Source of the DNA: a virus
IMG/VR virus record: IMGVR_UViG_3300021962_000066
Coordinates: 1-64,000 of that record
Direction: 5' to 3' (one strand)
DNA length: 64,000 bases
Position numbers and translations under genes: made by a program. Positions 19,643 through 38,051 of this stretch are shown here, piece by piece (the first letter of the stretch is position 1; each line of letters opens with the position of its first letter). The notes below the pieces were generated by a model that saw nothing but the letters and a program-made list of their open reading frames with translations, searched no databases and was not told the DNA's origin.

Positions 19643-19645
19643 GTT

Positions 19646-21830: not shown

Positions 21831-22286
21831 ATGCAGGCTCAATCGAAACATATTATCACTCACGAGACGTTTTTACAGTATGTAGATAAGATCTGTGAAT
21901 CCGTGAGAGGCTACAAGTTTGATACTATAATTGGATTAGGTAGAGGCGGCTATGTACCTAGTGTCTATATTTCTCATAGACTAGGTGTTAGTAAAGTAAT
22001 ATCTCTCGTAGCCAAGTCCTATACTGACGACAACACCAGAGGCAAGCTAAATTTTCTACAGGAACCAGTACTAACAGATAAGTGTAAGAGAGTACTGATA
22101 GTTGACGACATTGTCGATTCAGGAACTACCTTCAGTTTTGTACGAGATTGGCTCACCGCTAACTACCCTACAACAGAGGCGATCTTTGTATCTGTTGTTT
22201 ATAAAAAGCAGCTAATATTTCCTGATGTAATATGCGGTTACGTAGCGCCGTCTGACCAGTGGATCGTCTTTCCTTGGGAGATCTAA
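21831..22286 (+). CDS. Type I phosphoribosyltransferase (xanthine/hypoxanthine PRT-like)
   Basis: GLGRGG, VLIVDDIVDSGTT PRPP-binding motif, C-terminal WIVFPWE. Confidence 0.9.
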   Translation: MQAQSKHIITHETFLQYVDKICESVRGYKFDTIIGLGRGGYVPSVYISHRLGVSKVISLVAKSYTDDNTRGKLNFLQEPVLTDKCKRVLIVDDIVDSGTTFSFVRDWLTANYPTTEAIFVSVVYKKQLIFPDVICGYVAPSDQWIVFPWEI

Positions 22287-22364: not shown

Positions 22365-23639
22365 ATGGCAACAAGCACATCTACGTTCGCTCTTAATATT
22401 TCTGCCATTAGGGCATTATGCCTAGGAGTTTCGGGCATTACACCCCCCGGGCTAAAGCATGGGTATGCAGCGCCTACTGTCACTGACGGTATATCGGGCG
22501 ATTTCTTTTTTAATATAGCGTCTCTTTCATCATATCAGTTATATGGTCCGAAGACGACAACTTGGCCGACCTCGGCAATAACGCTAACAACTTTAAACTA
22601 TCTCACATCCTATACGAACACTCAACTTAATGGCCTCACAGGTGGTAATACTCTGGCAATAGCGTGCTTACAGGATGGTGGAAGTTCTGGCTACGGCTTA
22701 TTGAGCTCACTTAGGATATTGAATCAAGGTGGTGCTGCTGCTAATATAGGTTCACTAAGAATAAATACTAATTCAGGTCCGGGCATGCAGCTCCCGCATA
22801 TCATCTGCAGTGCATTTGGTGTTGAAAATTTTATAGTCGATAGTGATGGCTCATTATCAGCTAACAATATTACGACTGATGGTACGGTTACAGTAAACCC
22901 TAGGTACCAGACAACGGGAGGAGTAAATCGTTTATTCGGTGGCAATATATTCGGTACTAATGAGTGTTTTGTTTCTGCGGAAAAGGTTAGTATTTCTATC
23001 GGTGAGGCTACATCCGCGTACGATGCAAACTGTCTTGTAGGTGGCGGTAATTCGATTGCAACCGGTCAGTATTCATGCGCATTAGGTTGGGCTAATCAAG
23101 CAATTGGCCAGGGAACCTTTATTACCGGTCTTGAATCTAGAGCAGTAGGTAATCTGTCCATAGTACTCGGCGCCTCGGCCGTTGGTTATCATAGTGGTAC
23201 TTTTGTCTGGAACGGTGGTCAAGGAGCTAATATTAGCTCGTCCGTATACCCTGTCGTATACGGACGAGCAGGTACATCAGGCCACACTCAGGCCGTATTC
23301 TACTCTGCCTCTGGTACGCATATCGGTCGTAGACTTAGTGTTAATAATTTTCAAACAGAGACATTTAATATTACCGATCCTGTGCGTGGAACCACTGAGA
23401 CTGTGATACTAACCGTTCCTATCACAGGTAGTAATGATGCCACGTTTACTGTTAATGGTACCATATCGTCGAATAACACTACAACAGCTACAGGTTACTT
23501 CGATGGTAATAACGCACAGTTACTAACAGGCAGACAGACTGCACCGTCACCGTTAGTCGGCGGATCAACACTAAGTGATACAATTGCAGCATTTAATTTA
23601 TTACTGAGTAGTTTAACAGCTCACGGTTTAGTTAGATAA
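22365..23639 (+). CDS. Tail fibre-like structural protein
   Basis: G.AAP....G..GDFF....LYGPK motif and YadA-like A.G..S.A.G repeats; Gly/Thr-rich. Confidence 0.7.
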   Translation: MATSTSTFALNISAIRALCLGVSGITPPGLKHGYAAPTVTDGISGDFFFNIASLSSYQLYGPKTTTWPTSAITLTTLNYLTSYTNTQLNGLTGGNTLAIACLQDGGSSGYGLLSSLRILNQGGAAANIGSLRINTNSGPGMQLPHIICSAFGVENFIVDSDGSLSANNITTDGTVTVNPRYQTTGGVNRLFGGNIFGTNECFVSAEKVSISIGEATSAYDANCLVGGGNSIATGQYSCALGWANQAIGQGTFITGLESRAVGNLSIVLGASAVGYHSGTFVWNGGQGANISSSVYPVVYGRAGTSGHTQAVFYSASGTHIGRRLSVNNFQTETFNITDPVRGTTETVILTVPITGSNDATFTVNGTISSNNTTTATGYFDGNNAQLLTGRQTAPSPLVGGSTLSDTIAAFNLLLSSLTAHGLVR

Positions 23640-24244
23640 TGACATCGATGGCGCGATTTACCGATCGCACCCCTACCATAATGGTTCTGCAAAAATACTC
23701 CCGATACGTCAGTTACTTTTAATGGTAGCAGTACTACATCTGCAAAGTTTTTCAAATGTACGAGATCATCATCACTCGCGCATTTTCCAATCTCGGGGTA
23801 TATCTTACAGGTATCTAACCACCACAGCTGAAAGAATCCTAACGCCGTTCTGCCCTCGAATCCATGTTCTACATAATCATTAACGCTAGTACCGTCTACT
23901 AACGTTCTACTACATCCATATAAAATATCTTTATGTAAGTTAACTAGTTTATCTCTGTAATTAACTGGTAATAAAATATCACTATCTAACTGTAGTATCC
24001 ACCCCGTGTCTTTCAGTCTTTGTATCCCCTCATTAACTGCTTTACCTTTTGCAAAGTTTGCGCCGTTATAATATATGTCTCTAGATAGAATATATTGTAG
24101 CTGATTTTTCTCACATAATTGTATTGTCTTTTTATCAGACTGATGAGTAACGATAATCCAATCGTCTAGTAGATCTCTATTAGGTAGTGTCTTCTCTAGG
24201 TAATCGCTATAGTCTATACATACGGTTACTGCTGATATTTTCAT
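23621..24244 (-). CDS. Glycosyltransferase (GT2/GT-A fold)
   Basis: FAKGKAVNEG, WILQLDSDI (DxD), LGFFQL; ATGA overlap fixes the start at 24244. Confidence 0.8.
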   Translation of the reverse strand: MKISAVTVCIDYSDYLEKTLPNRDLLDDWIIVTHQSDKKTIQLCEKNQLQYILSRDIYYNGANFAKGKAVNEGIQRLKDTGWILQLDSDILLPVNYRDKLVNLHKDILYGCSRTLVDGTSVNDYVEHGFEGRTALGFFQLWWLDTCKIYPEIGKCASDDDLVHLKNFADVVLLPLKVTDVSGVFLQNHYGRGAIGKSRHRCHYLTKP

Positions 24245-24789
24245 AGCCACTCTACAGGAATTCTCTTCTTCGAATAAAATTTTGATATACCATTGCCCTG
24301 TAGGATTCTCATATAGAGCTCATCTGCGTAATTATACGGGAAACAAAACCTATCAGGTACACTGCCTAGTTGTAGCTCAAATGTATTAATCATATTTACG
24401 GTATCCGATAGATACATACGAATCTTTTCAACCATTAATGTATTCTTCCGTAGTTGGAGATGATTATGACCATGACCACCAATAAAACATTGAGGAGAAT
24501 TATATAACGATCTAATCTGTTCCCAGTTCATATAATTACTGACATCGCCTACGCTAAAGAATCGATCATGCGCATCAGTGCACGAAACGCAGTCAGAGTT
24601 CTGTTGGGTATCTTCTAACGCGACAATGTTAGTTGATATAAAAAAGATCTTTGGTGTGTTTATTTTTAGTAATTCGTTTCGAAACTTATACTGAGTATAC
24701 AATCCATCATCAAAGGTAAGTATATAATTCTGCAGAGGAAGTTTTAAAAACTCTTCCTTCATTTCATGAATCATTAGTACTTGTTTCAC
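24241..24789 (-). CDS. Polysaccharide deacetylase (NodB/CE4-like)
   Basis: LTFDDG, IGGHGHNH, FCFPY motifs. Confidence 0.85.
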   Translation of the reverse strand: MKQVLMIHEMKEEFLKLPLQNYILTFDDGLYTQYKFRNELLKINTPKIFFISTNIVALEDTQQNSDCVSCTDAHDRFFSVGDVSNYMNWEQIRSLYNSPQCFIGGHGHNHLQLRKNTLMVEKIRMYLSDTVNMINTFELQLGSVPDRFCFPYNYADELYMRILQGNGISKFYSKKRIPVEWL

Positions 24790-25436
24790 GAAATTGTAAA
24801 TATAGGTTTAAAGCATTCTGCTTTATCGTATCCACACAGACTTCCGATATAACTGTCGCGGTGAGCAATCATGTCTATACTTATAGGGTCAGGTGACTCT
24901 CTTAATTCTGTATCGTAGTTTTTAATACATCGAAGTTTTATATTATGTACTGATGTAATATCATTAAAGGTCGTGAACTCCTCTAATGACTTACCCCATT
25001 CGGTACTACCGGGAATCGAAAAACAGAGTAATTCCTTTATAGAGCTATTATATCTCGGTCTAGTAGTAACTCTAACAGCTTCATATACGATTCTATGGTC
25101 TCTGTGTATATCGTACTGATAGTGCGAATAGATAACTTCAGGTTTATATGAACGTATCTCACTATCAATGTGTGACCGTATATCAGCAAACGGGACAGTA
25201 TCGAGTGAAACGTCGGAGTAATCTAATCTTATAAAATCATCTATGTTTAGTATATTACAGTTTTTTTTTGCGGCCACCTGTCTGCTTCCTGCAACATGTT
25301 CATGCCCTGGTCGATTACCTTTACAGAACGTTAGCAGTCGAATCTTATGACCTTGCTGTTTAAGCTTGGCTACAGTACCGCCCATACCAATTTCCATATC
25401 ATCCAGATGAGCTGTTATAATTAAAATATTTTTCAC
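24786..25436 (-). CDS. PIG-L/LmbE family N-acetyl-sugar deacetylase
   Basis: AHLDDMEIGMGG and DIHRDH motifs. Confidence 0.9.
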   Translation of the reverse strand: MKNILIITAHLDDMEIGMGGTVAKLKQQGHKIRLLTFCKGNRPGHEHVAGSRQVAAKKNCNILNIDDFIRLDYSDVSLDTVPFADIRSHIDSEIRSYKPEVIYSHYQYDIHRDHRIVYEAVRVTTRPRYNSSIKELLCFSIPGSTEWGKSLEEFTTFNDITSVHNIKLRCIKNYDTELRESPDPISIDMIAHRDSYIGSLCGYDKAECFKPIFTIS

Positions 25437-26392
25437 GTATAGAAAGATACACCGCTGTTTATAATTTCCTGCATAGAAATTGTTGGTGTGTAATATTTTC
25501 TAAGTTCCAGAATATTAGGTATTCTGTAACCTATATCAATAAAGTCGTTTTTAAATGAATTACTCAGATCAGAATATACAATTTCTGATTTACTATTTAC
25601 AGCCTTTAAAACGCTATTTGCTAATTGATTAATCGTTGTAATGTTATTGGGGTTGCCTATGTTGTATATATTCCCGTAACATGACTCCGTACAACTAAGA
25701 ATATACAATGCATTAATAGTGTCTCTAACATCGCAAAACGATCTAGACTGTTCACCGGTGCCGTATACCTCAATCGGCTTATTACGTAGTGAGGCTTCAA
25801 TAAAATTCGGTAAAACAGCGCCGCCCTTACTGCATTGACCGTACCCTGTCACATTAAATGGTCTTACTATTATAGACGGGGTATCGTAACTCCTTAAAAG
25901 AAATTCCGATGTCAGTTTACATGACGAGTAACACCATCTACTTGTTCTGGAGGTTCCAATTGTAAGATTGTCAGACTCCACACAATTAGTTGAACTACCA
26001 TATATCTCACTCGTACTGGTGTATATAATCCTCTTATTAGACTTGGCAGCTGCCTCGAATACATTTGCATTTATATTGAGTATGCTTTTAATTGCATGAT
26101 TTGGGTTATTGTCTACAGTTCTAACTCCTACTGTTGATGCAAAGTGATATATAGTATCTTGATCTTTAAAAAAAGAATTGAGGGTTGTAGCAGACGTTTT
26201 AGACAGGTCGACTTTAATAATCTTATACCGATTACGAGCGTGGGACGTCTCCATTAATGTCTGTGATATCAACTTACTACGATGCCCTATATTATCTAAT
26301 ATTGTAATATAGTCAGTACCCTCTGTCAGTAGCTTTTTGAGTAAGGAGGCGCCTATAAAACCTAATCCACCTGTTATTAGTACTTTTTTCAT
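25433..26392 (-). CDS. NAD-dependent nucleotide-sugar epimerase/dehydratase (extended SDR)
   Basis: TGGLGFIG, STSEIYG, YxxxK (YSSCK), RPFNVTG, RSFCDV. Confidence 0.9.
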   Translation of the reverse strand: MKKVLITGGLGFIGASLLKKLLTEGTDYITILDNIGHRSKLISQTLMETSHARNRYKIIKVDLSKTSATTLNSFFKDQDTIYHFASTVGVRTVDNNPNHAIKSILNINANVFEAAAKSNKRIIYTSTSEIYGSSTNCVESDNLTIGTSRTSRWCYSSCKLTSEFLLRSYDTPSIIVRPFNVTGYGQCSKGGAVLPNFIEASLRNKPIEVYGTGEQSRSFCDVRDTINALYILSCTESCYGNIYNIGNPNNITTINQLANSVLKAVNSKSEIVYSDLSNSFKNDFIDIGYRIPNILELRKYYTPTISMQEIINSGVSFYT

Positions 26393-26395
26393 ATG

Positions 26396-26992
26396 TCAGC
26401 AAAATAACTCCTTTATATCTCTGATAGAGTTTGACTGCAACGATGTATAGTCTATAGTGGACTCAATACTGTGTAAACTGTTTATTGTTTGACTAATGAA
26501 ACTATCAATAGTAATATAACTTATAATATTAGACATATCACTGTCACTCACTAAATTTTGTCGTATTTTACGCATTAAACCCTTTGTTCTATGGGTACCA
26601 TACACTCGCGGTATTCGTAATATCATATACTTATTGTAACGCTTTTTAATGTAAACCTCCATAGCGAACTTACACGATTCATAAAGATTTGTAATCTTAT
26701 TAACTCCCTCCGTACTAGCAAATATAAATGTAGCATGATTCTCTATTGCAATATTCAATAGATTGTCTGTACCTATAACAATAGTGCTAACTGTTCGCTC
26801 TATATCTTTAAATTCAAATGTATCGCTAGGAGAGGCTAAATGCATGACCATGTCAATATTACTATATTGACGTCGATCTCTAACATCGCCTTCATACTCC
26901 ACCACGGTATAGATAGCGGAGAGTGCCGGTATAAGCGATGAGCCTAAAAAGCCTTTACTGCCTGTTATTAGTATGCGAGGTTTTCCATTCAC
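26396..26992 (-). CDS. Short NAD-dependent epimerase/reductase
   Basis: TGSKGFLG, HLAS, YESCK, LRIPRVYG. Confidence 0.8.
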   Translation of the reverse strand: MNGKPRILITGSKGFLGSSLIPALSAIYTVVEYEGDVRDRRQYSNIDMVMHLASPSDTFEFKDIERTVSTIVIGTDNLLNIAIENHATFIFASTEGVNKITNLYESCKFAMEVYIKKRYNKYMILRIPRVYGTHRTKGLMRKIRQNLVSDSDMSNIISYITIDSFISQTINSLHSIESTIDYTSLQSNSIRDIKELFC

Positions 26993-27458
26993 AATTATCC
27001 CAACCGAGTCTTATGAGACTTGGTTCCTTTCCTCTGATGCAGTTAGTAAGCGTACTCAGAAATGATTGACGATCGTGAGGTTCATGTAGAGGTATGCCCA
27101 GCGCTGCCATAAGTTGCGCGTCATCGTCTAATATATGACCCTTACCGCCGGCTTTATAACAACCGTTAGCACCTGCGTTAATAAACGTAACGCTTCTACC
27201 GAAGTTTACAACACTGAACTTTATCTGTTCGTATCCGCGGTGTATTACAAACCCTGCAACCCCATACACTATAACTGACTTACCTTGACTAGCTAGCCCA
27301 CCAGCAATGTTCACAAGGTTCGTCTCCTGCACTCCTACATTTATACAACGCTCTGGAAACCGCGACTTAAATCGCTTAAAGCTCCACATATCTGCATGTA
27401 AGAAATACAGATTCGGATTATTGTATTTACTAAGAAATTTGTCTAAGGTATTTCTCAT
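26955..27458 (-). CDS. Transketolase-like protein, pyrimidine-binding (beta) subunit
   Basis: FPERCINVGVQETNLVNIAGGLA, RGYEQIK, IRL motifs. Confidence 0.9.
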   Translation of the reverse strand: MRNTLDKFLSKYNNPNLYFLHADMWSFKRFKSRFPERCINVGVQETNLVNIAGGLASQGKSVIVYGVAGFVIHRGYEQIKFSVVNFGRSVTFINAGANGCYKAGGKGHILDDDAQLMAALGIPLHEPHDRQSFLSTLTNCIRGKEPSLIRLGWDNCEWKTSHTNNRQ

Positions 27459-28143
27459 CTACTTTTTTATAATGCCAGGTTATAGGGTCTGCTTCCATAA
27501 ATGGGACACCGTACCCTTTAATAGTCTTACAAAAGAATACAGTCGGTTTACCGTATTCAGCTCTAAACTCTTTATTGAGCTTAAGGTAATCATGCCCGTC
27601 AACGACAGTAGTAGCCCACCCATTATTGCTAAAGAAGTTAATTACCGGCTCTATAGGTAGAATGTCGCACACTTTACCTGTAACCTGTTGGTTGTTGTAA
27701 TCTACAGTAACAACTATATTTGCCAATTTCTTATGACCGATATACTGTATAGCCTCTAGAGTGCTGCCCATCTGCAATGTAGCATCAGAGAGATTGACCC
27801 ACACTTTCTGAGATGTTGTCATAGCAATGCCACTTGCAACACCTAGAGCATTCCCCATCGTCTCTTCACCGAAATCAACAAAGTCTATTTCAGCGTGTTT
27901 AACTCCAGGAGATAGATTCTCTATATGCTTGATATAGTTAAGTCTTTTCCAGATTAGATAATAGGTTTGTGAACCAAATGGCTTACCTAGAACGATTTTG
28001 TGCTTATATGGTACAACATGCTTCTCTGTAAACAGAACATCCACATAAGTGAGCATAGATAGAGCTGACGGTATGTGCGTCAGCTGCTGCTTGATAGAAT
28101 ACTGTAAAACAGTATTTGGTAAAATAGGATCAACTATATCCAT
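27430..28143 (-). CDS. Transketolase-like protein, TPP-binding (alpha) subunit
   Basis: HIPSALS, G..LG.A.G.A, DYNNQQ, VDGHD, TIKGYG, WH motifs. Confidence 0.85.
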   Translation of the reverse strand: MDIVDPILPNTVLQYSIKQQLTHIPSALSMLTYVDVLFTEKHVVPYKHKIVLGKPFGSQTYYLIWKRLNYIKHIENLSPGVKHAEIDFVDFGEETMGNALGVASGIAMTTSQKVWVNLSDATLQMGSTLEAIQYIGHKKLANIVVTVDYNNQQVTGKVCDILPIEPVINFFSNNGWATTVVDGHDYLKLNKEFRAEYGKPTVFFCKTIKGYGVPFMEADPITWHYKKVDEKYLRQIS

Positions 28144-29389
28144 AATCTTTTAACCATATAGGATATGGTGTACCCCTCAAGACATCAAGTTCTCGTGCTG
28201 CTATTTCTACGAGATTCCTAGGACTAGGTTCCTTTACACCTAGCCCTGTTAATAAACTATTCCAACTCCATTCATCAAATATAGCAGACTCTGAATATAA
28301 GTTAACATCCATCTGTTTATACTGATCCCAATACTCATTACTTCTTTTTGCGTATTTATAGTGTGCTAGTATAAAACTAACTATCGAATTGTATTCCTTA
28401 TTGATCGTACGGTTATATTCATCTGCTGTAATCTTCTCTTCAATATAGTCGCATAATAGCTCAATACTGAACACACTCATAAACAGACTAGTACTTTCCA
28501 TCGGCTCGACAAAGCTTGATGATAGACCTACGGCAGCAACTGGCGGCACTCCTTCAACTATATGTGTCTCACATCTACCAGTTGCGAACTTAATTTTTTT
28601 AATCTTACTCTCATCTATCTTACTGACAGTAGATTGCTCTATAAAGTCTATAAATTCCTGTCGCACGTTGAAATTATCTGAATGCACATATCCAAATGTC
28701 ATCTCGTTTCGTAAAAACAAGTTCCATATCCACCCATATTTCATAGCGGTTGCAATTGAATAGGGTCGTATTTGATTTAGGGAGTTAGTATAACGGTGTC
28801 TATAAATGTAGGCAGAGTTGTTAGGAATTAACTGCTCTATAGATACAAAGTTATTATCAGGCTCTACTGCTCTGAGAATAGTCTTTGACAGGCCTGTACA
28901 ATCTACTACAAGATCTGCAGTACTCTTCACATCATTAAAGCTAACTTCCTTTTTTATAATAGAGAGATTTTTATAAACCTGCAATTTAGATTCTATTAGA
29001 GTTGTTAGAAGGTTAACATTAAAGTGGAATCCTATATTACTCTCCGGATGTAAAACGCCAGCTGTTACACGTTGCTGTCTGCAATGCTCATCATACGACG
29101 GAAATGCATGGAAAAACTTATCTCTTACACCGGAAAACTCATCAAATCTAAATCCAAATTTTATAGTACCGTTACAATGATCGAGAATGTCTTCTGACGA
29201 TATACCTATTTTTCTTAGAAAAATATGTACGTCAGGTACAGTTGCTTCGCCTACACCTATAGGGTTATTAACCTCCGGGTATATCCATCTGATGCTCTTA
29301 TCTGGAAATGCTTTACATAAAAATGCAACCGCTAGGTAGCCTGCTGTACCAGCACCGACAACAGTTAGGTTTTTATACTCTCGGATCAT
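28130..29389 (-). CDS. Flavin-dependent (tryptophan) halogenase family protein
   Basis: GAGTAG, IGVGEAT, TIKFG (PrnA catalytic Lys position), GWIW, FVEPMES. Confidence 0.85.
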   Translation of the reverse strand: MIREYKNLTVVGAGTAGYLAVAFLCKAFPDKSIRWIYPEVNNPIGVGEATVPDVHIFLRKIGISSEDILDHCNGTIKFGFRFDEFSGVRDKFFHAFPSYDEHCRQQRVTAGVLHPESNIGFHFNVNLLTTLIESKLQVYKNLSIIKKEVSFNDVKSTADLVVDCTGLSKTILRAVEPDNNFVSIEQLIPNNSAYIYRHRYTNSLNQIRPYSIATAMKYGWIWNLFLRNEMTFGYVHSDNFNVRQEFIDFIEQSTVSKIDESKIKKIKFATGRCETHIVEGVPPVAAVGLSSSFVEPMESTSLFMSVFSIELLCDYIEEKITADEYNRTINKEYNSIVSFILAHYKYAKRSNEYWDQYKQMDVNLYSESAIFDEWSWNSLLTGLGVKEPSPRNLVEIAARELDVLRGTPYPIWLKDYGYS

Positions 29390-30357
29390 TTTACCTCAAC
29401 TCTCTTGTACTCTAAATCAAAAACGCATTTTTTAAATGGACATATTACATCTGCAACTGTTGTAAAATAATTGTCGTAATTATACGGAGTATTAATGTTG
29501 AATAAAGGTTTAGCAAAAGAGAATATCTCGCTGATACATCTGTAACAATTACCATCCCAATCGATTATTATTCGATCCTTAGCTACGCTGCACTTATAAC
29601 CTAAAAAGTTAGTCTTATTATTTAGCCATAGCTCAAATTTTGATACACTACTAACAGTGTATGGGTCTGTTTGGTATTTAATAGTTTTATCGAAAAAAAG
29701 GCTATGTATAGCTAATTTAGAAATGTCTTCAGTTTTTTGCAGGTAGGCTAATTCACCTACATCACTCTCAACACGGTTCACCTTGCAATCAATAAGCGGA
29801 GATATCTCACAATACTCTATACCGAGTATAGAAACAGCTGTGTTAAAGCTGCCCATAACACATTTACGACTATTGTACATAAATGTAATCTTACCAAGGA
29901 GATTAAGATTCTTAATCATAATACACTTTCTAAGAAATAAAGGCAGCTCAGTTTGAGTGTTGTGAAAGCTGCAGGATATTTTAAAGATATTACTATACTT
30001 CGCATATCTGCTGCAAAATGAAGAGAACCAATCTTCTGATCGTGACAAGTTAGTTAGAAAATCAATGGAGATATTAATCCTATTAGCAGTACAATAGGCT
30101 AGCACACTATCCAAGAAACTGTTTAAATGGGTGTAAAGAGTCGGCTCGCCTCCGTATATAAATAAGTAGATCGGTCTCTTAATGACTTTAGATATTGAGC
30201 CGATCATAGAGCAGACGTTATCTGCATTCAGCTGAGTAATAGGATTCTTATTTTGATGTAGATCGGTACAGTAATAGCAGTCGTAATTACATTTAGTTGT
30301 AAGTCTAACTTCTAAATTAAAGCGTTGCTGTTCCTCTCCTAGCGATACGATCTTTAT
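29386..30357 (-). CDS. Radical SAM protein 5 (extended upstream of 30207 to include CxxxCxxC; probable ATA start)
   Basis: In-frame CNYDCYYC upstream of the annotated start; GGEPT; C-terminal C..IDWDG..YRC..C..C. Confidence 0.85.
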   Translation of the reverse strand: MKIVSLGEEQQRFNLEVRLTTKCNYDCYYCTDLHQNKNPITQLNADNVCSMIGSISKVIKRPIYLFIYGGEPTLYTHLNSFLDSVLAYCTANRINISIDFLTNLSRSEDWFSSFCSRYAKYSNIFKISCSFHNTQTELPLFLRKCIMIKNLNLLGKITFMYNSRKCVMGSFNTAVSILGIEYCEISPLIDCKVNRVESDVGELAYLQKTEDISKLAIHSLFFDKTIKYQTDPYTVSSVSKFELWLNNKTNFLGYKCSVAKDRIIIDWDGNCYRCISEIFSFAKPLFNINTPYNYDNYFTTVADVICPFKKCVFDLEYKRVEVK

Positions 30358-31271
30358 AACCTCTCCTTATAGTATGAGTATTTTATATCACAGCAGCATC
30401 CTGTTTCTACATCGCAAATAACCTGCTTATCAATATTACTTCCGAGAGGCGTCATAGGTGTATGAGTACAGTGGTTTACTATTCGACCATCTGTCTTTAT
30501 ATACCACATTAACGGTGTGCATCGAAAACCCTTAAAAAATCTTAAGCCATGTTTTTGTATGTCATACTCATTTAAATTAGTCATCTTACCGTTGATATTA
30601 AACGGGATATTACCTGTAATACTTTTAGGATTTTCTGCAATTACTGTTTTAAATGTTTCAAAAAACTTGTCAGTATATTTAGGAGACCAGCCTGCTCTCG
30701 TTGGAATTAGAAAATTAAACCCAACTGCAACACCTCGCTCTTTTAAGGTATTAATGAGACTGATAGTGCCTTCCCAATGCTCCTCAGTGTCTGACAGATT
30801 TATATTAGGAAAAATAGTTATATGCTTTGCATCTTTTATAGCAATACACTTATCTATAAAGACTGGCTTAAAGTATTCGGGATGGTAAGAGGGTGTTATT
30901 TGCAGCTTATTACACTCAGGTATATCAAATTGCTGATAATATTCTAATGATCTAGAAAAATTTGTAACAAGTTCTATCTTAAGACAATTTTTAATTGCAT
31001 TTAGTCCCTTTACAATTTCAACCAAATCTGGATGCAATGTAGGTTCCCCGCCTAGCAACTCAACGTTAAACTTAGGTATGCGGTTAAGCGACAACTGCTT
31101 TACGACCTGTTTATACGACTGCAGCTTAGTAGTATCAATCTGCTTCTTCAAAAAGTGCTCTGCACTACAATACGAGCACCTGTAATTACACACGTCAACA
31201 AGGTCCCACGAAAATGTAACCAGCTTACAATTGGGGTCGCCAGCATGCTTAACGTCGTCTATTGTCATCAC
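30354..31271 (-). CDS. Radical SAM protein 4 with twitch-like Cys-rich C-terminus
   Basis: CNYRCSYC, GGEPTLHP, SYHPE, FKGFRC, C-terminal CCC. Confidence 0.9.
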   Translation of the reverse strand: MMTIDDVKHAGDPNCKLVTFSWDLVDVCNYRCSYCSAEHFLKKQIDTTKLQSYKQVVKQLSLNRIPKFNVELLGGEPTLHPDLVEIVKGLNAIKNCLKIELVTNFSRSLEYYQQFDIPECNKLQITPSYHPEYFKPVFIDKCIAIKDAKHITIFPNINLSDTEEHWEGTISLINTLKERGVAVGFNFLIPTRAGWSPKYTDKFFETFKTVIAENPKSITGNIPFNINGKMTNLNEYDIQKHGLRFFKGFRCTPLMWYIKTDGRIVNHCTHTPMTPLGSNIDKQVICDVETGCCCDIKYSYYKERL

Positions 31272-31278
31272 TTATTAC

Positions 31279-32250
31279 TTATTGAGTTTCCGAGTTATTC
31301 AATAATACTACTTTTTCTTTAAAAATCTTTAACAAGCCGTCACAATTGCAGCTACCGTGTGGGCATTTGACAGGCGTAATTGCTGTAATCTTTTTAAAGT
31401 AAAACGGGTCAGTTACAAGATTAACAGGTTGATCAAAGCATACTCTATGAACGACACCATCGTATGAGATCTCGTAATTATTATTCCAGCAACTCCATCC
31501 CTTGAACCCCGTTAGTTCACGTTTAAAGAGATTGTAGTCATTGTACATAACCTTATCGCCCTTAACATCTTCAAAGGTGAAGTAGTTAGGATATGCGTTA
31601 AATCGTTTAAACTCATTATAAAATTCTTCGCTATAGTTCTCAGGCACATGTACGTCGCCGTTAGCATATAGGAAGTGTGGGTGTATCTCGATACCGCTCA
31701 TCTCTTCAAGACTATCTACAAATTTATGAATCTTAGGCCATAATTCCTTTTTTGGATTTAGCATTACATTCACCTTACATCTAAACCCCTTGTCCTTAAT
31801 AACTCTAATATTGTCCAGTAACCGTTTAAAGTCTTCTCCGTATTTGGATTCGTATTCAGTATGGAAACTCCACAAGAAGTACATGTTGTTATAGTACTTG
31901 TGCTTTCTAAAAAAATCCGTATCTTTGGATCCATTTGTAGTAATATACAATCTACCGTCCGGGTGTTTAGAAATAGCAGCATGACAGCCTTCTATTAACT
32001 CCTCGTAGCGAGGGTGGAGAGTAGGCTCTCCGCCTAAGAGACCCAAGAACACTGGTAGGGTTGCTCTACCGATACTGTTGATGACTAGTTGCTGCTTATC
32101 CCACCTATCTATCCTGCCCCACTCATCGCCATACTCCTTCATCGCATAACAATATGAACATTTAAAGTTACACTGGGTACTTACATCCCAATGAATATAT
32201 AGTCGTTGTACCTTATGACCGGAGTCATATTGCTTGATAAAATCTGTCAT
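31279..32250 (-). CDS. Radical SAM protein 3
   Basis: CNFKCSYC, GGEPTLHP, TTNGS, FKGWSC, CPHGSCNC. Confidence 0.9.
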   Translation of the reverse strand: MTDFIKQYDSGHKVQRLYIHWDVSTQCNFKCSYCYAMKEYGDEWGRIDRWDKQQLVINSIGRATLPVFLGLLGGEPTLHPRYEELIEGCHAAISKHPDGRLYITTNGSKDTDFFRKHKYYNNMYFLWSFHTEYESKYGEDFKRLLDNIRVIKDKGFRCKVNVMLNPKKELWPKIHKFVDSLEEMSGIEIHPHFLYANGDVHVPENYSEEFYNEFKRFNAYPNYFTFEDVKGDKVMYNDYNLFKRELTGFKGWSCWNNNYEISYDGVVHRVCFDQPVNLVTDPFYFKKITAITPVKCPHGSCNCDGLLKIFKEKVVLLNNSETQ

Positions 32251-32884
32251 CTTTATTATAGGTATAGAAACTTATATTATCACCACCGCTTGTGGTCTGT
32301 ACCCAGCGCTCACCAATAATATACTTAATAGTTGCCGGTTGAAGGGAATGGAAAAGCTCTATGTCGTTATTAATATTATTACCGACCGGAAACGACTTAA
32401 TTAATGATTTTCTGAACAGTATCTGACCGAGTTGAAAGTCACGTGGGGTATATTCTTTCAGGAATTTCGATAAGTCAGTCACTTCAAATAAATGTCGGTT
32501 TGACTTAGTGACACGCTTATATGCACAATAAGGCCCGATCTCAGCTATCAGCGGTTCCGAGACATATTCCAGATAGTTAACATCCGACTCGAAGTCTAAA
32601 TTATCAAAGAAGTTTCTTTTTATGTAGTCATCATCTTCTAAGAAATACACGAACTCACATAGGGACTGATCAAACAGAAACCTATATAAATTGGAAAGGT
32701 CACTATCTCGTTTGTAGTGATATGATATAGGTATTGCAGTATTATAAATTTCGTCGATATCATTAGAGTCGTTGTTTACTATGACTTCGACACCGGGCGG
32801 CACTTTGCAGGCTAATATACTTTCAATACACCGCTTAAACAGCTTTGGTCTATTGTGGGTTAATATTAAAATGCTAAGTTTCAT
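32225..32884 (-). CDS. Glycosyltransferase family 2
   Basis: LSILILTHNRP...CIESI, VIVNND, YFLEDDD. Confidence 0.85.
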   Translation of the reverse strand: MKLSILILTHNRPKLFKRCIESILACKVPPGVEVIVNNDSNDIDEIYNTAIPISYHYKRDSDLSNLYRFLFDQSLCEFVYFLEDDDYIKRNFFDNLDFESDVNYLEYVSEPLIAEIGPYCAYKRVTKSNRHLFEVTDLSKFLKEYTPRDFQLGQILFRKSLIKSFPVGNNINNDIELFHSLQPATIKYIIGERWVQTTSGGDNISFYTYNKDDRFYQAI

Positions 32885-33888
32885 TTTCTATATTTTACGT
32901 GATCGAGGCCATCATAGCATGTAGTATTGATGCAAACTACATCTGACTTCAAGAATGCATTAACATCAATATCGGCTAAGTTTGCCCCGCGTATTTGTTT
33001 ATTATAGTCATCATTACAGTGATAAACCTGTAAAGTATGGTCAATAACTATATTCTTTTTGCCACACTCACACCACATATGTTTAAATTTCGTATGTATT
33101 TTGCTAGCCTTTACCTCGCTGTAGTTTTTCACAGTACCATCAATATTAAAGTTCCAGCCTTCTTCGAAATATTCTTTAAAGTGTGGATATTTTCTGGTAA
33201 AGTATCTATACTCTAAACTCTTACCATTATCATCTCCTCTTAAATAGTCATCAGTTAGGTGCACCTTATAATCTGGTAAGTTGAGAAAAGTTAAATTTTC
33301 TATCTCAGTAAATTTCAGCTTTATCTTGCCGGGGAATCTACTATTTAAAAGATTAAACTCAGATAGAAATTGATCCTCTCTACCGATTTCTGTACTAAAG
33401 AAGCACAACCCCATAGCATTGTATTTGTTGCTTAGATACAGTTTTTTTGAAAACTCATCGACCGACTGCTTACCTATATGATAGCTACTGCAAATGTCAA
33501 TTTTTGCCGTACAGGTAGTAGCTGTTTGTAGAAATACCTCTAAACGGTCATAAGCAATACTTAAATTTGTCTGGGTTTGTAGGAAGAGTTCTCTATCGGA
33601 AAATATCTTTATAAGTTCAAAGTGTAAATGTTCCCAATATCTGCTTAGCGTTGGCTCTCCGCCATAGAAGTAGAAAAACAACCGCCTTTTGCTCACGGGT
33701 ATTTGAGACAGTTTAGAAATTACTGCTGCACAGTCTGCCTCAGACCACTGCGTAGACGTGTTGTTATACTCATTACAGAACCAGCATGCGTGATTACACT
33801 TGAATGATGGTTTTAAAGTGACTTTCAGATCATACTCAGGGAATTGAGCAGTCTTTATTATCTCAAACTTATGTATTAAAGCAGACAT
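32881..33888 (-). CDS. Radical SAM protein 2
   Basis: CNHACWFC, GGEPTL, SSYH, C..G...VYHC, C....C. Confidence 0.9.
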   Translation of the reverse strand: MSALIHKFEIIKTAQFPEYDLKVTLKPSFKCNHACWFCNEYNNTSTQWSEADCAAVISKLSQIPVSKRRLFFYFYGGEPTLSRYWEHLHFELIKIFSDRELFLQTQTNLSIAYDRLEVFLQTATTCTAKIDICSSYHIGKQSVDEFSKKLYLSNKYNAMGLCFFSTEIGREDQFLSEFNLLNSRFPGKIKLKFTEIENLTFLNLPDYKVHLTDDYLRGDDNGKSLEYRYFTRKYPHFKEYFEEGWNFNIDGTVKNYSEVKASKIHTKFKHMWCECGKKNIVIDHTLQVYHCNDDYNKQIRGANLADIDVNAFLKSDVVCINTTCYDGLDHVKYRK

Positions 33889-34828
33889 TCTGTATAATAT
33901 TAATTATGCTATCATCGCTCTGAAGCGATACCGAACTAATGTCTGTGTCTATATCAAGCTTTCGATATTTTAACCCGGTGTCTATATTTAAATATGCCTC
34001 GTCGATGTTATAATAGATAACATCTTTACCGTAATGCTTACACTCAGCAATAAATCTCGGGCTACAGTCGAACATTGTAGTCGTCGGAGTATATATGTAT
34101 GTTGAAAACTTACTAAACAGATCTAAAACAGGTGCAGATAGAAAACTAACCTCAGTAATATGCTTAAACTTATCGGTGTATGCTTCAGGGAATGATGTTA
34201 TAGCTATAAATTTTTTAAATTGAGGGTAAAGTTGAGACATCTGACAAAGGATTTCGTCAGATATGGCTCTACAGTTCTTAGTACAGTATAGTAATGCAGT
34301 ATCGACCTCTGCTGATACTGCAGACTTAAGCTTAGAGAAGAGTATTTTTTTCCTGTAGTCTATTGCAATATTAATATCTTTTGGCGTGCATTTATATACC
34401 CGGTTATCCTGTAATAGGGTTATATTATTATACCGCAGGTCATGAAACGTATCTAAACGTGAACACTTAAACGCCAACACGTTATCGAATATTAGTTTTA
34501 CACCGAAGTGTTGAAAGTTTCTATTTAAGCCGCCATCAACGAAGAGAATATTCTTGCCCTTTAATATTTTTGGTCTAGATGCAAAGTAAGTATTATTCCT
34601 TATATCGCTAACCTCTCTGCTTGTTACATTATACTTATCAGTAATGATTGACTCAATTTCACTCCAAGTGAAGTCTTCTCCTATGAATATGCCAGTTTTA
34701 TATCGCTGTGAAAGTATGAAGTAGTAGTCAAAAATTTCATAAATATGCCCGCATATTCCGTGATTATTGTCAGGAGGCCAGGTAACTGATAAAAATATAT
34801 CATAGTTTGCATCTAATACTTTAATCAT
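33869..34828 (-). CDS. Hypothetical enzyme, possibly degenerate GT-B glycosyltransferase
   Basis: YIY...FDCSPRFIAECKHYGKDVI resembles the GT-B 'E.F.R...EA...G.PVI' donor-binding segment; embedded in the cluster. Confidence 0.5.
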   Translation of the reverse strand: MIKVLDANYDIFLSVTWPPDNNHGICGHIYEIFDYYFILSQRYKTGIFIGEDFTWSEIESIITDKYNVTSREVSDIRNNTYFASRPKILKGKNILFVDGGLNRNFQHFGVKLIFDNVLAFKCSRLDTFHDLRYNNITLLQDNRVYKCTPKDINIAIDYRKKILFSKLKSAVSAEVDTALLYCTKNCRAISDEILCQMSQLYPQFKKFIAITSFPEAYTDKFKHITEVSFLSAPVLDLFSKFSTYIYTPTTTMFDCSPRFIAECKHYGKDVIYYNIDEAYLNIDTGLKYRKLDIDTDISSVSLQSDDSIINIIQNVCFNT

Positions 34829-35846
34829 ACATACCGGATCTATAGAAGTTAACTCGTCTTATCTTCTTGCCCGAGACGGGGTATACCGGTGCATCTAGCT
34901 TCTTTTCAATCCCGTCACAAATATAGTAAAATTTACAGGTAATACAACTGTTAGGCTTTTTATAATCATTTGATCGATCTTTTGCAGCAACATCATGCGC
35001 TATTAAAATCTTCTCATTCTCAGTATACGCTTTAGATACATCTAGCGTACCACTATACATCTCTTTATTCCAATCATACCTATCGTATATGTGTTGATAC
35101 TGATTACATACGTACTTTTCGTAGCCAATCATATAGCAATACGGGGTATATCGGACATTAATAGTCTTTATATCGTCTTTTATAATGTCGATACACTTCT
35201 TAATATGGGTTGTGAGGGTTAAATAGTCAGCCTGTTCAAAATTTTTATTATCCTCCCAATAGTTAAGAGTAAGAAAATTAATCTCAAGAGGCTTAATTGA
35301 TAATAGAAGCTTACTGTACTCTTCCAACCCTTCGCAGTTCTTTTGATAAACTGTGCAATTTATTCTGACAATAATTTTATGTTTTTTAGCATTGTCGATT
35401 GCTTGGAGTATCTTAATATAAGAACCCTTTCTATCAGTAATCTGATCGTGTACCTGTTCGTTAAATCCATGGAGACTAAATAGTATCTCTTTTAGTCCGT
35501 GTTCTTTCGATTTCTTAAGAAAGGCTTCATTAGCAAATTTATAGCCGTTACTAAGACAGCTAATATGTTCAAATCTTTGATTACAGTAATCTAGGAGCTC
35601 AAACCAATCTTTATGTACACTTGACTCACCACCTGAAAGATCGACCTCAGTAATACCATATCGGTGTAGATAATCGACCCTGTCCTTAATTACCGATAGT
35701 GGGGTATTTACATCAAGACGGTCCTTATAGTAGCAAAACTCGCAATTATAATTGCAGAGTGTACCTGTATCTAATTTTGCTCTGTTACACCGTTTTGTAT
35801 CAAAATCTATATCTATGCCGTGAGTACTAATGACGTTAAGATTCAT
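34821..35846 (-). CDS. Radical SAM protein 1 with SPASM-like CxxCxxxxxC tail
   Basis: CNYNCEFC, SGGE, SLHG, PYC, K..SCITCKFYYICDG. Confidence 0.9.
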   Translation of the reverse strand: MNLNVISTHGIDIDFDTKRCNRAKLDTGTLCNYNCEFCYYKDRLDVNTPLSVIKDRVDYLHRYGITEVDLSGGESSVHKDWFELLDYCNQRFEHISCLSNGYKFANEAFLKKSKEHGLKEILFSLHGFNEQVHDQITDRKGSYIKILQAIDNAKKHKIIVRINCTVYQKNCEGLEEYSKLLLSIKPLEINFLTLNYWEDNKNFEQADYLTLTTHIKKCIDIIKDDIKTINVRYTPYCYMIGYEKYVCNQYQHIYDRYDWNKEMYSGTLDVSKAYTENEKILIAHDVAAKDRSNDYKKPNSCITCKFYYICDGIEKKLDAPVYPVSGKKIRRVNFYRSGMYD

Positions 35847-36549
35847 TGCAAACAAAATCCGGGGCAGGCAATAAAAGCGAAGGCCAGAATGAGGTTAATG
35901 CTTTAACGGTTTTGAATTGGGTTAGATCAACTTCTTGAGGCACATCTCGAAACATTTGCTTGATTATAGCTATATCAGCAATATCGCTCGACAATGAACT
36001 AGTCAATGTCTCCTTCTCTAGGTTATCTAACTCCTGTAGATTCTTATTTCGATGCTCACGTATTAACTTCATCCAGCCTACTCGACACTGATTTAAAGTA
36101 GTCTCGTCAACTGATTCACCCTCTATATCTCGCTTATCATCTATGCCTAGATGCTTGCAGAGTATTAGCGGGGTTCTGTAAGCATTCGGATTTGTTCCGA
36201 ATATATGATTAAACGTATCAATCTGAAATAATCCGGTGTATAGCTTAGCCTCAGTATACCACCTAGTGAAGATCTGTTCGCTCTTTTCGAAAAATTCAGG
36301 GGATTGTTTAGAGTAGAATTTAGCTATGTCCTCACCGAGTAGAGGTACGGTTTGACCACATGACATAAGTATACCGATATTATCACTATTGACCTCCACC
36401 TCACGCTGTAAAATTTCATCAAAAAATCCGTTATTTGAGTTGTTGCCCTTCTTGACGTATATAAAGCGCTCTATATGGTTAGTTCGAACACCAATGACGC
36501 AGTGGGTATTATCATTAACGCCTCTTGCCCAGTTATGAATTGTATGCAT
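35836..36549 (-). CDS. Protein with C-terminal tail-fibre assembly chaperone-like domain
   Basis: IREHRNKNLQELD...KQMFRDVPQ...FWP matches the R..RN..L...D...Q.LRD.P...WP chaperone pattern. Confidence 0.6.
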   Translation of the reverse strand: MHTIHNWARGVNDNTHCVIGVRTNHIERFIYVKKGNNSNNGFFDEILQREVEVNSDNIGILMSCGQTVPLLGEDIAKFYSKQSPEFFEKSEQIFTRWYTEAKLYTGLFQIDTFNHIFGTNPNAYRTPLILCKHLGIDDKRDIEGESVDETTLNQCRVGWMKLIREHRNKNLQELDNLEKETLTSSLSSDIADIAIIKQMFRDVPQEVDLTQFKTVKALTSFWPSLLLPAPDFVCNES

Positions 36550-36552
36550 ATA

Positions 36553-37131
36553 CTAAGATCTTTGTGTACCGTCAATATTAACCCTCTTACCAGTCGCTCC
36601 GCCGTATGGTACCTCGATGGTAGTGGCTTCTTCCGCTCCGGTTTTATTGTCTCTAATCGTAACTGAGTAGGTACCAGCATTTAAAGCAGATTTAGTAAAG
36701 ACGGTTTGTGTATCGGGGTTTATGGTAACCGCCGGATCAGATCCTACTGTGATGACGGCCAGACGTGCACTAGCAAACTGTGCAAACGAAGTTTGCGATA
36801 TAGTGATTACAATCGTCCCATTATTAAGAGTTTTGTATTTCGATGGGGTTTCCGGCGTCGACGTGATCAGCGCCTTCAGTATCTGAGCGCCTTTAAACTC
36901 ACCAAAACTAAACGGTTCACCCGGAGTTAAATTTTCAACTTCACCATATTGAACAAACAAATCGTTAATTTCAGAGATCTTTGAATTAGATCTATTTGTT
37001 TCCCTACTAGCGAGCGAACTTACATCGCTGCCCTGTAACGTCGCATTTAAACTACGCGTAGAGGTGGCCGCAGCACCTACGGAGATGGGTGCTGCGGCGT
37101 CATTTGGTATTGCTGTACCGGCATGTGGCAT
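36553..37131 (-). CDS. Small fibre-tip/adhesin-like virion protein
   Basis: Ala/Ser/Thr-rich; PIS...P.SF.EF.G N-terminal attachment-like motif; Ig-like C-terminus (LNAGTYSVTIRD). Confidence 0.55.
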   Translation of the reverse strand: MPHAGTAIPNDAAAPISVGAAATSTRSLNATLQGSDVSSLASRETNRSNSKISEINDLFVQYGEVENLTPGEPFSFGEFKGAQILKALITSTPETPSKYKTLNNGTIVITISQTSFAQFASARLAVITVGSDPAVTINPDTQTVFTKSALNAGTYSVTIRDNKTGAEEATTIEVPYGGATGKRVNIDGTQRS

Positions 37132-37157
37132 ATTTTAATTATGTATTATTATATTGA

Positions 37158-38042: not shown

Positions 38043-38051
38043 ATATATAGA

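Follow-up and report, generated by a model that had tools for sequence, protein, structure and literature searches.

Why are as many as a dozen genes for radical S-adenosylmethionine (SAM) enzymes found in some T4-like phages? This question has been standing since 2010, and it is raised again by an uncultured water phage, the record IMGVR_UViG_3300021962_000066 of the IMG/VR database. Bases 1-64000 of this linear record (83,783 bases; completeness about 40% according to CheckV) were analysed and are called the window in the following. On its minus strand, at positions 23621-35855, 15 close-packed enzyme genes are present, for radical SAM enzymes, a flavin-dependent halogenase and sugar enzymes, following genes for baseplate proteins. 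Compact and equipped with a halogenase, this gene island is a variant of a kind of island already reported from phages; the kind as a whole is widespread among T4-like phages and uncharacterised, closes the late baseplate/fibre operon and consists of soluble enzymes only. The reading favoured here, with a rough probability of 0.4, is a late cytoplasmic pathway which builds, and edits by radical chemistry, an unusual sugar on a fibre-associated virion protein.

Composition of the island

Positions 23621-37131 are occupied by 17 consecutive open reading frames (ORFs) of the minus strand (Table 1). Adjacent island genes overlap by 4-38 nt or are spaced by 3-7 nt, and ATGA-type junctions are frequent; the ORF coordinates thus confirm the run of overlapping or nearly abutting enzyme genes described in a first-pass annotation, which had been made from the sequence without database searches. 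That annotation had spoken of 14 enzyme-like genes; its families were recovered, but its own list sums to 15 if the two halves of the transketolase are counted apart. The GC content (0.34-0.42) is similar to that of the remainder of the phage. None of the 19 proteins of the run contains a 19-residue stretch with a mean hydropathy of ≥1.6, and all look soluble. The end of the last island gene overlaps the end of a convergent gene for a 424-aa protein (22365-23639) by 19 nt. No match to GenBank phages was obtained by megablast with the entire island, and the 424-aa protein had none there either.

Assignments were judged by the family cut-offs of Pfam and NCBIfam; those of the short-chain dehydrogenases/reductases (SDR), the deacetylases and the glycosyltransferases of family GT2 hold at the superfamily level and are far under NCBIfam cut-offs. 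No island enzyme exceeded the cut-off of any housekeeping equivalog in NCBIfam. Translations were read for the catalytic motifs of these families (Rossmann motif and YxxxK, AHxDD/HxDH, TFDD, DxD), and the catalytic signatures look intact.

All five radical SAM enzymes, already recognized in the first pass, possess CxxxCxxC and GGE; four of them exceed the cut-off of PF04055, and the fifth (rB5) reaches 25.4 bits. The gene for rA is the most conserved of the island. The C-terminal ~140 aa of this enzyme are unique and contain three conserved Cys (alignment A2), while its core has its closest counterparts in SkfB, viperin-like enzymes, MoaA and BlsE. The other four are members of a paralogue family, rB, of which 165 proteins fell into 63 clusters at 55% identity. 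All 63 representatives (alignment A3) keep CxxxCxxC, and ≥90% of them also have GGEP, an Asn, SxH and four additional Cys. Along its whole length the rB profile can be aligned with SuiB (chain residues 127-448) and SkfB (110-393), and the auxiliary-cluster domain is covered as well; matches to NCBIfam NF033640 (N_Twi_rSAM) of 8.1e-4 to 3.7e-9 are far under the family cut-off. The best conserved paralogue is rB3 (orthologues 39-66% identical), followed by rB2 with 45-57% identity in relatives; for rB5, orthologues of 339 aa and 41-43% identity were found in loci L001 and L002, and for rB4 no orthologue of >39% identity was present across the 57 loci described below.

The start of rB5 deserves a remark. 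Its frame is open to 30366, the first ATG, GTG or TTG is the ATG at 30207, and CNYDCYYC lies upstream of this codon. Translation likely starts at ATA 30357-30355 (or at ATC 30351-30349), as judged from the DNA at this site, AAGGAGAGG-TT-ATA-AAG-ATC (30346-30368, minus strand), where the ATA overlaps the TAA stop of rB4. The junction reads ATAA where ATGA would be usual, which suggests that initiation is coupled and uses a non-canonical codon. The sequence of the source is unlikely to be an assembly error, since 29516-30403 is found with 0 differences in contigs from runs X4 and X5; these runs are of other years and samples than the likely source, and are perhaps one data set filed twice. A radical SAM gene which seemingly starts at ATA is one of the features that the window adds to what has been described of such islands.

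Halogenase, split transketolase, two SDR enzymes, PIG-L and CE4 proteins had all been named in the first-pass annotation and were borne out by Pfam. The halogenase matches tryptophan halogenases in the PDB, and cyanophage VirX1 at 1.1e-28. It contains GAGTAGY (GxGxxG), and in the alignment with PyrH the places of K75 and E354, the catalytic residues there, are taken by Lys77 and the Glu of EPMES; GxGxxG, Lys and Glu are kept in 10/10 distinct phage homologues. The motif WxWxIP, which is kept in 8/10 distinct homologues, reads WIWNLF in the window. Despite this alteration the enzyme is still placed in the flavin-halogenase superfamily, with halogenation as its predicted activity. With 419 aa it is about 90 residues shorter than tryptophan halogenases (511-550 aa); it lacks ~60 residues between positions 98 and 155, and its C-terminal substrate module is shorter. 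In relatives the halogenase gene is often nested between the two transketolase genes. A search of viral contigs by exact peptide patterns of the halogenase gave none, which is a limit of that method, as homologues do occur in rA loci.

For the transketolase subunits, the signature of thiamine diphosphate (ThDP) binding was inspected by eye: Asp and Asn are kept (SDA...DYNN), and VQE stands at the place expected in the pyrimidine-binding subunit, where no Transketolase_C domain was found with Pfam. The best NCBIfam models of the extended SDR were PRK11908 (3.2e-31; UDP-xylose/4-keto-pentose synthase), dTDP-glucose 4,6-dehydratase and ArnA (6.5e-29), all far below cut-off; at the superfamily level this enzyme is probably of the type that forms 4-keto nucleotide sugars. 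The PIG-L protein matches BshB1 over its full length (1.2e-20, under cut-off). Of two glycosyltransferases of fold GT-A claimed in the first pass, GT2a stands above its cut-off, but the second GT2-like protein is weak and stays below; the latter has a 43% identical homologue on the contig of genome G001. The "possible GT-B" (U319) had no family match, and its profile gave no match in the PDB under E 0.05; what speaks for the label is a lead from the ESM Atlas, where the nearest named clusters are Glycos_transf_1 (0.92) and the neighbours are 94-100% viral.

Distribution and position of the island in viral genomes

When rB3 was used as a query, three viral contigs were found; the rA alignment as a query yielded 57 IMG/VR loci. 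The module counts in Table 1 were obtained by BLAST of the ORFs of these loci against the window (1e-5, ±10 kb around rA). In most loci the order U319/rA, GT2a, rB enzymes, TKn-(halogenase)-TKc, short SDR, SDR, PIG-L, CE4 is kept. The arrangement of split transketolase and short SDR, then SDR, PIG-L and CE4, is found in the window, in L001, L003, L029, L040, L057 and L069, and in the Campylobacter phage CP220. This order bears on the original proposal for CP220 and CPt10, according to which radical SAM enzymes boost the metabolism of the host under low oxygen (Timms et al. 2010, PMC2853527); the sugar genes would then be unrelated passengers. Such general metabolic help appears extremely improbable for the island, considering that the module order is kept across related loci and the genes overlap translationally, that carriers were found both in oxic surface waters and in the gut, and that no enzyme resembles a housekeeping equivalog (see above).

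Among cellular genomes (185,579 species), patterns of rA were found only in two contigs of metagenome-assembled genomes (MAGs; 11 kb and 8 kb), one of them with the island itself. Both have the appearance of phage sequence caught in the binning, so that rA and U319 are practically restricted to viruses; one island relative is on the Mediterranean MAG contig L014. As the lead enzymes are virtually virus-only, new biochemistry may be expected from them. The island is common: one gene led to 57 IMG/VR loci, and 531 metagenome proteins are related to TKn at E ≤1e-10, with an identity of at least 56% among the 120 matches listed. DNA of the window's phage itself was detected in sequencing runs of 12 studies, in five of them with at least half of the sampled words (three of these are possibly the source). 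The gp6-like protein was not found in the first three relatives.

A small protein in which the heptad CxCNCNY is repeated occurs in 21/57 loci, ~3 kb before rA and beside radical SAM enzymes of the phrog_1802 type (for example L006:3872-4492 and L047:6673-7281; CTCNCNY, for instance, occurs three to five times); that of the complete genome G003 has a C-terminal domain of fibre type by PHROG. The repeat is absent from the window, from the other 19.8 kb of the contig, and from all loci of the window's subgroup. The Cys-repeat part is an optional sub-module, and the window represents a reduced variant. Because the part with sugar enzymes, rA and rB occurs without it, the rB enzymes do not need the Cys-repeat protein. 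The window thus adds a compact, halogenase-bearing version in which the sugar/rA/rB part stands alone. In one subgroup an upstream 665-aa fusion protein combines a cytidylyltransferase-like domain with an unnamed PHROG family (L016:4696-6693); it would be a sugar-activating enzyme, which the window's island lacks.

The place behind fibre-type genes recurs. A fibre-type relative is encoded upstream on the same strand in 39/55 rA loci, and anywhere in 41/55 (phmmer with nine seeds); since the seeds were taken from the same loci, this speaks for recurrence but does not test it independently. Loci of the window's subgroup show the succession fibre, a protein of 190-260 aa, a chaperone-like protein of 237-372 aa, and rA. 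The synteny which the first-pass annotation had proposed to examine is kept in this subgroup. The complete relative G003 (205,555 bases) is instructive: behind the sheath a long gene run on one strand extends across the end of the record, followed by a 491-aa fibre-like protein (tail-fibre matches in PHROG), a Phage_tail_APC gene of 75 codons (5e-21) and a 437-aa fibre-like protein, then by three phrog_1802 radical SAM enzymes, a 206-aa protein with a fibre-type C-terminus, and the island. For the large upstream proteins of ten loci tested by PHROG, strong matches to the distal part of long tail fibres were obtained in four (L020, L025, L027, L018), a weak match in L054, in L042 only an unnamed PHROG common to the fibre-like protein of G003, and in four none. 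In L068 the ORF directly before rA has a Peptidase_S74 fibre-chaperone domain; apart from this and a weak fn3, Pfam gave nothing in upstream ORFs of other subgroups.

In the window itself, the names "large structural", "lectin" and "adhesin-like" given in the first pass to the 995-aa, 294-aa and 192-aa proteins could not be upheld by homology in Pfam, PHROGs, NCBIfam, the PDB or GenBank phages; the 995-aa and 294-aa proteins had no match in the PDB, nor the 995-aa protein in GenBank phages, and the 192-aa protein none in Pfam, NCBIfam or PHROG. The family of the latter (~190-260 aa) stands in relatives between the fibre gene and the chaperone-like gene, and 10 of its proteins have 7 invariant columns (alignment A5). 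In the 237-aa protein the N-terminus is variable, and a conserved acidic motif in the C-terminal part ends in WPxLLLPxP. The designation of this protein as chaperone-like retains two weak supports, i.e., its place beside cyanophage clusters of Phage_tail_APC (PF16778) in the ESM Atlas (0.91, 172 shared features) and sub-threshold matches of its family to PF16778 (E 0.021, residues 161-208, 2/13 members; E 0.009 in the L025 genome). For the C-terminal part of the 294-aa protein (37171-37532) a 15%-divergent allele was present in run X8 (freshwater, 2023), from another water body, with 54 differences in 362 bases, whereas the long pieces of enzyme genes listed for the same run were at most ~2% divergent. 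This contrast fits a receptor-binding protein under diversifying selection.

Judged from its sequence, the carrier is a distant T4-like myovirus. Together with the structural genes of Table 1, the minus strand encodes three tube paralogues, a tape-measure-like protein and, in all, two gp25-like proteins. The closest cultured phages are remote: the sheath shows 45% identity over the last 28% of its length only, and the terminase 36% identity to Synechococcus phages. The upstream run gp25, gp6, PKD, as read in the first pass, is supported by PHROG and Pfam. Ten plus-strand neighbours (11070-21638) had no Pfam matches. A gene resembling xanthine/hypoxanthine phosphoribosyltransferases (21831-22286; 6.6e-19, under cut-off) lies between late-type genes of no assigned role and the convergent gene for the 424-aa protein, which is rich in Ser and Thr.

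Table 1. Terminase, structural, unassigned upstream and island genes of the window, in the order of transcription, with the number of loci (of 57) in which each module was found
Feature	Position	Strand	Length (aa)	Evidence and remarks	Loci (of 57)
Large terminase	61939-63951	minus
Sheath	58913-61255	minus
gp25-like	45053-45529	minus		PHROG baseplate wedge match
gp6-like	43230-45053	minus		PHROG baseplate wedge match
PKD-domain protein	41053-43233	minus		Pfam PKD
995-aa protein	38052-41039	minus	995	no matches
294-aa protein	37158-38042	minus	294	no matches
192-aa protein	36553-37131	minus	192	Ser/Thr/Ala-rich, no Cys or Trp; candidate small adhesin or acceptor
237-aa protein	35836-36549	minus	237	tail-assembly-chaperone look-alike; weak Phage_tail_APC; overlaps rA by 20 nt	11, immediately before first radical SAM
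rA, radical SAM	34821-35855	minus	344	PF04055 1.1e-21; CNYNCEFC	55
U319	33869-34828	minus	319	no Pfam or NCBIfam family; possible GT-B-type glycosyltransferase	49; adjoins rA, either order
rB2, radical SAM	32881-33888	minus	335	PF04055 30.1 bits; twitch/SPASM-type paralogue family	50 (rB-type proteins together)
GT2a (GT-A)	32225-32884	minus	219	PF00535 25.5 vs cut-off 23.3; DDD motif	37
rB3, radical SAM	31279-32250	minus	323	PF04055 4.9e-13
rB4, radical SAM	30354-31271	minus	305	PF04055 1.4e-10
rB5, radical SAM	29386-30357	minus		PF04055 25.4 bits vs cut-off 29.5; CNYDCYYC
Flavin-dependent halogenase	28130-29389	minus	419	PF04820 3.2e-56	19
TKn, transketolase N-terminal (ThDP-binding) subunit	27430-28143	minus		PF00456 2.7e-12; NCBIfam transketolase 1.6e-22	33
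TKc, transketolase pyrimidine-binding subunit	26955-27458	minus	167	PF02779 27.6 vs cut-off 27	29
Short SDR	26396-26992	minus	198	PF01370 3.6e-10; GxxGxxG and YxxxK, without C-terminal substrate domain	23
Extended SDR	25433-26392	minus	319	PF01370 5.9e-38; GxxGxxG and YxxxK	11 (often past searched flank)
PIG-L/LmbE-family de-N-acetylase	24786-25436	minus		PF02585 3.4e-26; AHLDD, HRDH	10 (often past searched flank)
CE4 polysaccharide deacetylase-type	24241-24789	minus		PF01522 (Polysacc_deac_1) 25.5 vs cut-off 23.1; TFDD	10 (often past searched flank)
Second GT2-like transferase	23621-24250	minus	209	PF00535 21.3 vs cut-off 23.3; DSD motif

Expression, proposed chemistry and possible products

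When would the island be expressed? The octamer TATAAATA is not enriched overall (19 matches vs 13.6 expected), and 8/19 copies stand 6-16 nt before start codons, including those of sheath and tube (sites 58847-58854, 61263-61270, 56005-56012, 11056-11063, 15570-15577 and others). A distance of 6-16 nt is too short to accommodate a Shine-Dalgarno sequence, and late mRNAs may thus have almost no leader. Short plus-strand genes (45579-46091, 47527-48006, 56020-57324) form islands inside the minus-strand structural operons and have their own late-type octamer or hexamer; a clamp loader gene and a dUTPase gene are located between baseplate genes. Genes of the enzyme island are not immediately preceded by TATAAATA; the closest late-like hexamers precede the 995-aa gene and, as a weak match, rB4. 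In relatives the octamer was present within 40 nt upstream of 2/345 island ORFs, vs 27/699 other ORFs. The early-promoter heptamer GTCGGTA is enriched in the window (15 vs 5.5 expected; reached in 0/100 shuffles), with five plus-strand copies in the first 6 kb (1003-5605), 6-7 nt after TAnnnT. The single copy on the island strand has no -10 element and was rejected as a chance match; consensus scans for sigma-70 promoters and for terminators remained at chance level. An internal early promoter, which the first-pass annotation regarded as speaking against a role in virion tailoring, was thus not indicated by any early-promoter signature within the island. These data fit a read-through from late structural promoters, from which we infer late timing.

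The timing bears on another explanation, i.e., hypermodification of DNA, in which the sugars would be attached to a modified base of the genome for evasion of restriction. In T4, DNA precursors are needed early; an island in a late operon, free of an early-promoter signature, does not agree well with this. Hypermodification of DNA with various glycans by phage glycosyltransferases is on record (Pyle et al.), homologues in CP220 sit among genes of nucleotide metabolism, and the complete carrier G003 possesses a dCMP hydroxymethylase resembling gp42 of T4 (2.5e-71 to 1B49). In G003 (L072 = G003:84000-94000, ORFs 1011-6064) this gene stands beside those for a P-loop kinase, a small HAD-like protein, a fusion of nucleotidyltransferase and APH kinase, and a 466-aa protein of no assigned role; the cluster is likely a module for hydroxymethylcytosine (hmC)-sugar DNA, separate from the island. 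It is located 95 kb from the island and has its own sugar-activating gene. Since a close homologue of the hydroxymethylase was found only in G003 among 17 large carriers (1/6 of those ≥90% complete), the island does not travel with the hmC pathway, and a link to hmC as a rule was rejected; three other carriers had only thymidylate-synthase-like matches of 24-28% identity. In the 83,783 bases of the present record (~40% complete) no gene of the tRNA-guanine transglycosylase (TGT)/DpdA type, of the thymidylate-synthase family or for a dCMP hydroxymethylase was detected, so that the earlier statement of no DNA-modification markers holds for this length. The deazaguanine modification in CP220 would presumably account for one radical SAM enzyme (QueE) and for no sugar enzyme. 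CP220 DNA is reported to be fully substituted with 7-amido-7-deazaguanine (ADG), and a sugar-bearing base is not mentioned in the portion of the report at hand (PMC10516641). Taken together, attachment of the sugars to DNA is very unlikely, and evidence against tracking of the island with the hmC pathway is a further contribution of the window.

For the favoured pathway, acting on a virion protein, a chemical scheme can be inferred from the known activities of the enzyme families. The enzymes would draw on nucleotide sugars of the host, because the island contains no nucleotidyltransferase. The extended SDR could form a 4-keto sugar nucleotide, to which the two-subunit ThDP enzyme would add a two-carbon unit, and reduction by the short SDR would then give a branched or chain-extended sugar. 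Up to three transferases (the two GT2 proteins and the GT-B-like partner of rA) may place sugars on the acceptor, and the PIG-L and CE4 enzymes could deacylate amino sugars after their attachment. C-H bonds of the product might be attacked by the five radical SAM enzymes, with oxidation, epimerisation or cross-linking as the outcome, and the halogenase might put Cl or Br on an aromatic group. The acceptor would most likely be a fibre-associated virion protein encoded just upstream, for example the 192-aa or the 294-aa protein. The first-pass annotation had proposed a phage pathway tailoring tail fibres or baseplate; a set of soluble sugar and radical SAM enzymes encoded by the last genes of a late-type structural operon agrees with it, while the target is read from gene position only. 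A more specific version, in our view somewhat unlikely, would be a radical-SAM-edited, partly deacetylated, two-carbon-branched and halogenated glycan on a small protein of the fibre tip, with the rB paralogues as a generator of chemical diversity. If true, this diversity could serve host recognition or the evasion of receptor masking and of anti-phage lectins, and it would represent a second, enzymatic layer of host range beside sequence variation of the fibres. More generally, a product on the virion would, if true, mean a new type of phage protein modification, with bearing on host range and phage therapy.

Several observations weigh against a virion acceptor. The three proteins upstream of the island in the window have no relatives of known role, and the terms fibre or adhesin are positional for them. 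A fibre-type protein upstream was missing in 16/55 loci, namely three with short flanks, three Campylobacter records, seven of the window's own subgroup, L031, L041 and L045; besides, the nine seeds come from the same loci, and "fibre-like" refers to PHROG names of C-terminal domains. In CP220 the homologues are located beside NrdA, thymidine kinase, ThyX and NrdB and not in a tail operon. The region of the island is moreover a known plastic cluster, which collects accessory genes regardless of function (PMC7029224). Concerning the enzymes, MoaA scores as well as peptide maturases with the rB profile; the radical SAM enzymes are without a RiPP recognition element (RRE), for which no N-terminal room is left, as CxxxCxxC begins at residue 27-38; and no precursor-like peptide or Cys-repeat protein is present in the contig, so that nothing indicates a particular acceptor. 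In keeping with this, no PqqD-type Pfam match was found in the island, and the alignments with SuiB and SkfB begin after their RRE. With rB5 extended, 23621-38051 contains no unassigned gap of >26 nt for a precursor gene, and no Cys-rich small ORF on the minus strand.

The lack of an RRE domain and of a precursor peptide would be expected if the product were a diffusible or intracellular small molecule, i.e., a halogenated compound of amino-sugar or nucleoside type, directed against the host, competitors or defence systems. Glycosyltransferase, PIG-L, radical SAM and SDR enzymes together recall the logic of aminoglycoside or tunicamycin synthesis, and the core of rA resembles enzymes of nucleotides and nucleoside sugars (viperin-like, MoaA, BlsE). 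PIG-L enzymes such as MshB, BtrD and TunE act on N-acetylglucosamine (GlcNAc) glycosides of small aglycones, and the match to BshB1 points in the same direction. A gene trio of cyanophage S-SCSM2R which includes a radical SAM enzyme was named antibiotic synthesis genes (PMC12801897), and each radical SAM cluster of CP220 is accompanied by an amidinotransferase (PMC2853527). On the other hand, no scaffold-forming enzyme (cyclitol synthase, non-ribosomal peptide or polyketide synthase), exporter or self-resistance gene was found with Pfam and NCBIfam. A small molecule would also leave unexplained the repeated position behind fibre and fibre-chaperone genes, and the fast turnover of rB (63 clusters from 165 proteins) would better fit a diversifying surface structure. 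We regard this explanation as quite unlikely; if true, a halogenated natural product made by a phage would result.

Remodelling of the host envelope was considered as well. Lipopolysaccharide (LPS), capsule or another surface glycan could be altered or stripped by the island's enzymes, with nucleotide sugars diverted from the host, which would block superinfection by competing phages or ease release. SDR, CE4 and GT2 enzymes resemble the pathway of the Arn type for a lipid A sugar (see the ArnA match above), and peripheral glycosyltransferases without membrane helices do act on lipid-linked glycans. A modification of the O-chain was proposed for the host recognition cluster of pelagimyophages (PMC7029224), and degradation of the capsule for the deacetylase pair of Campylobacter phages (PMC3322345). 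However, no initiating phosphoglycosyltransferase, flippase, polymerase or transporter was detected with Pfam, and no membrane segment is predicted in the 19 proteins. The pair rA/U319 is nearly without cellular relatives, unlike the usual surface-glycan genes derived from hosts, and late expression in a lytic phage would leave little time for surface conversion. To our knowledge, five radical SAM enzymes and a halogenase are not usual in LPS pathways. Envelope remodelling is held to be unlikely.

Comparison with known systems

A full-text search of the literature for a solved function of the gene set gave descriptive mentions only, and the set was not met in the accessible part of the survey of jumbo phages by Iyer et al. 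2021 (PMC7824862). The first-pass annotation had known of no characterised pathway with this composition; this stands as far as function is concerned, but the gene set itself has been in print since 2010 and 2020. A hypervariable region with fibres, glycosyltransferases, LPS-type genes and radical SAM cassettes, the "host recognition cluster", was described from pelagimyophages and cyanomyophages by Zaragoza-Solas et al. 2020, who proposed a change of the host O-chain (PMC7029224). That paper gives no gene-level account of the cassette, and the window's phage is distant from cultured cyanophages. In a 2025 paper on the T4-like cyanophage S-SCSM2R, radical SAM, aminotransferase and amidinotransferase genes make up the "antibiotic synthesis genes" mentioned above (PMC12801897).

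With respect to the enzymes, the peptide maturases SuiB and SkfB share the alignment over the auxiliary-cluster domain with rB; in contrast to them, the rB enzymes of the window have no N-terminal RRE, and no precursor peptide was found in the contig. The mycobacteriophage systems presumably need few glycosyltransferase genes, act on the C-termini of capsid or tail-tube proteins, and are without genes for radical SAM enzymes, transketolase, deacetylases or halogenase. A feature they would share with the pathway proposed here is that phage glycosyltransferases decorate the phage's own structural proteins (virion glycosylation; Freeman et al. 2023, PMC12619734).

The nearest cultured counterparts are the Campylobacter phages of group II (Firehammervirus: CP220, CPt10, CP21, IBB_35), which are T4-like myoviruses, like the window's phage. 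They encode 11-12 radical SAM enzymes, including the deazaguanine pathway; Timms et al. 2010 reported 11 and 12 such genes in CP220 and CPt10, applied the term interchangeable module to a set of five genes, and surmised that the metabolism of the host is assisted (PMC2853527), while Carvalho et al. 2012 interpreted the deacetylases as capsule-degrading (PMC3322345). By tblastn against GenBank phages, rA is 46% identical to its Campylobacter phage homologues (44-50% across 15 records; 13/18 matching records cover ≥80%), and U319 has homologues of 27-29% identity in 15 Campylobacter phage records; TKn homologues are present in 11 Campylobacter records, and rB3 has a match in CP21. No halogenase match was seen in Campylobacter phages, the phage collection not having been searched with the halogenase. 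Whereas the window contains one compact operon behind baseplate genes, the genes in CP220 are scattered among those for NrdA, NrdB, ThyX, thymidine kinase and helicase and among insertion sequence (IS) elements. The rA homologue of CP220 lies between phosphoesterase and thymidine kinase genes; in L011/L012 (112-154 kb of CP220), SDR, PIG-L and CE4 stand immediately before ThyX and NrdB, a pair of U319 and radical SAM genes immediately after the intein-bearing NrdA, and IS200/IS605 elements between the pieces. The island of CP220 may have been broken up by transposition. Its trio SDR, PIG-L, CE4 has nevertheless the same order as in the window, and, because these cultured Campylobacter phages carry core genes of the island, the question for the role of the radical SAM enzymes can be tested at the bench.

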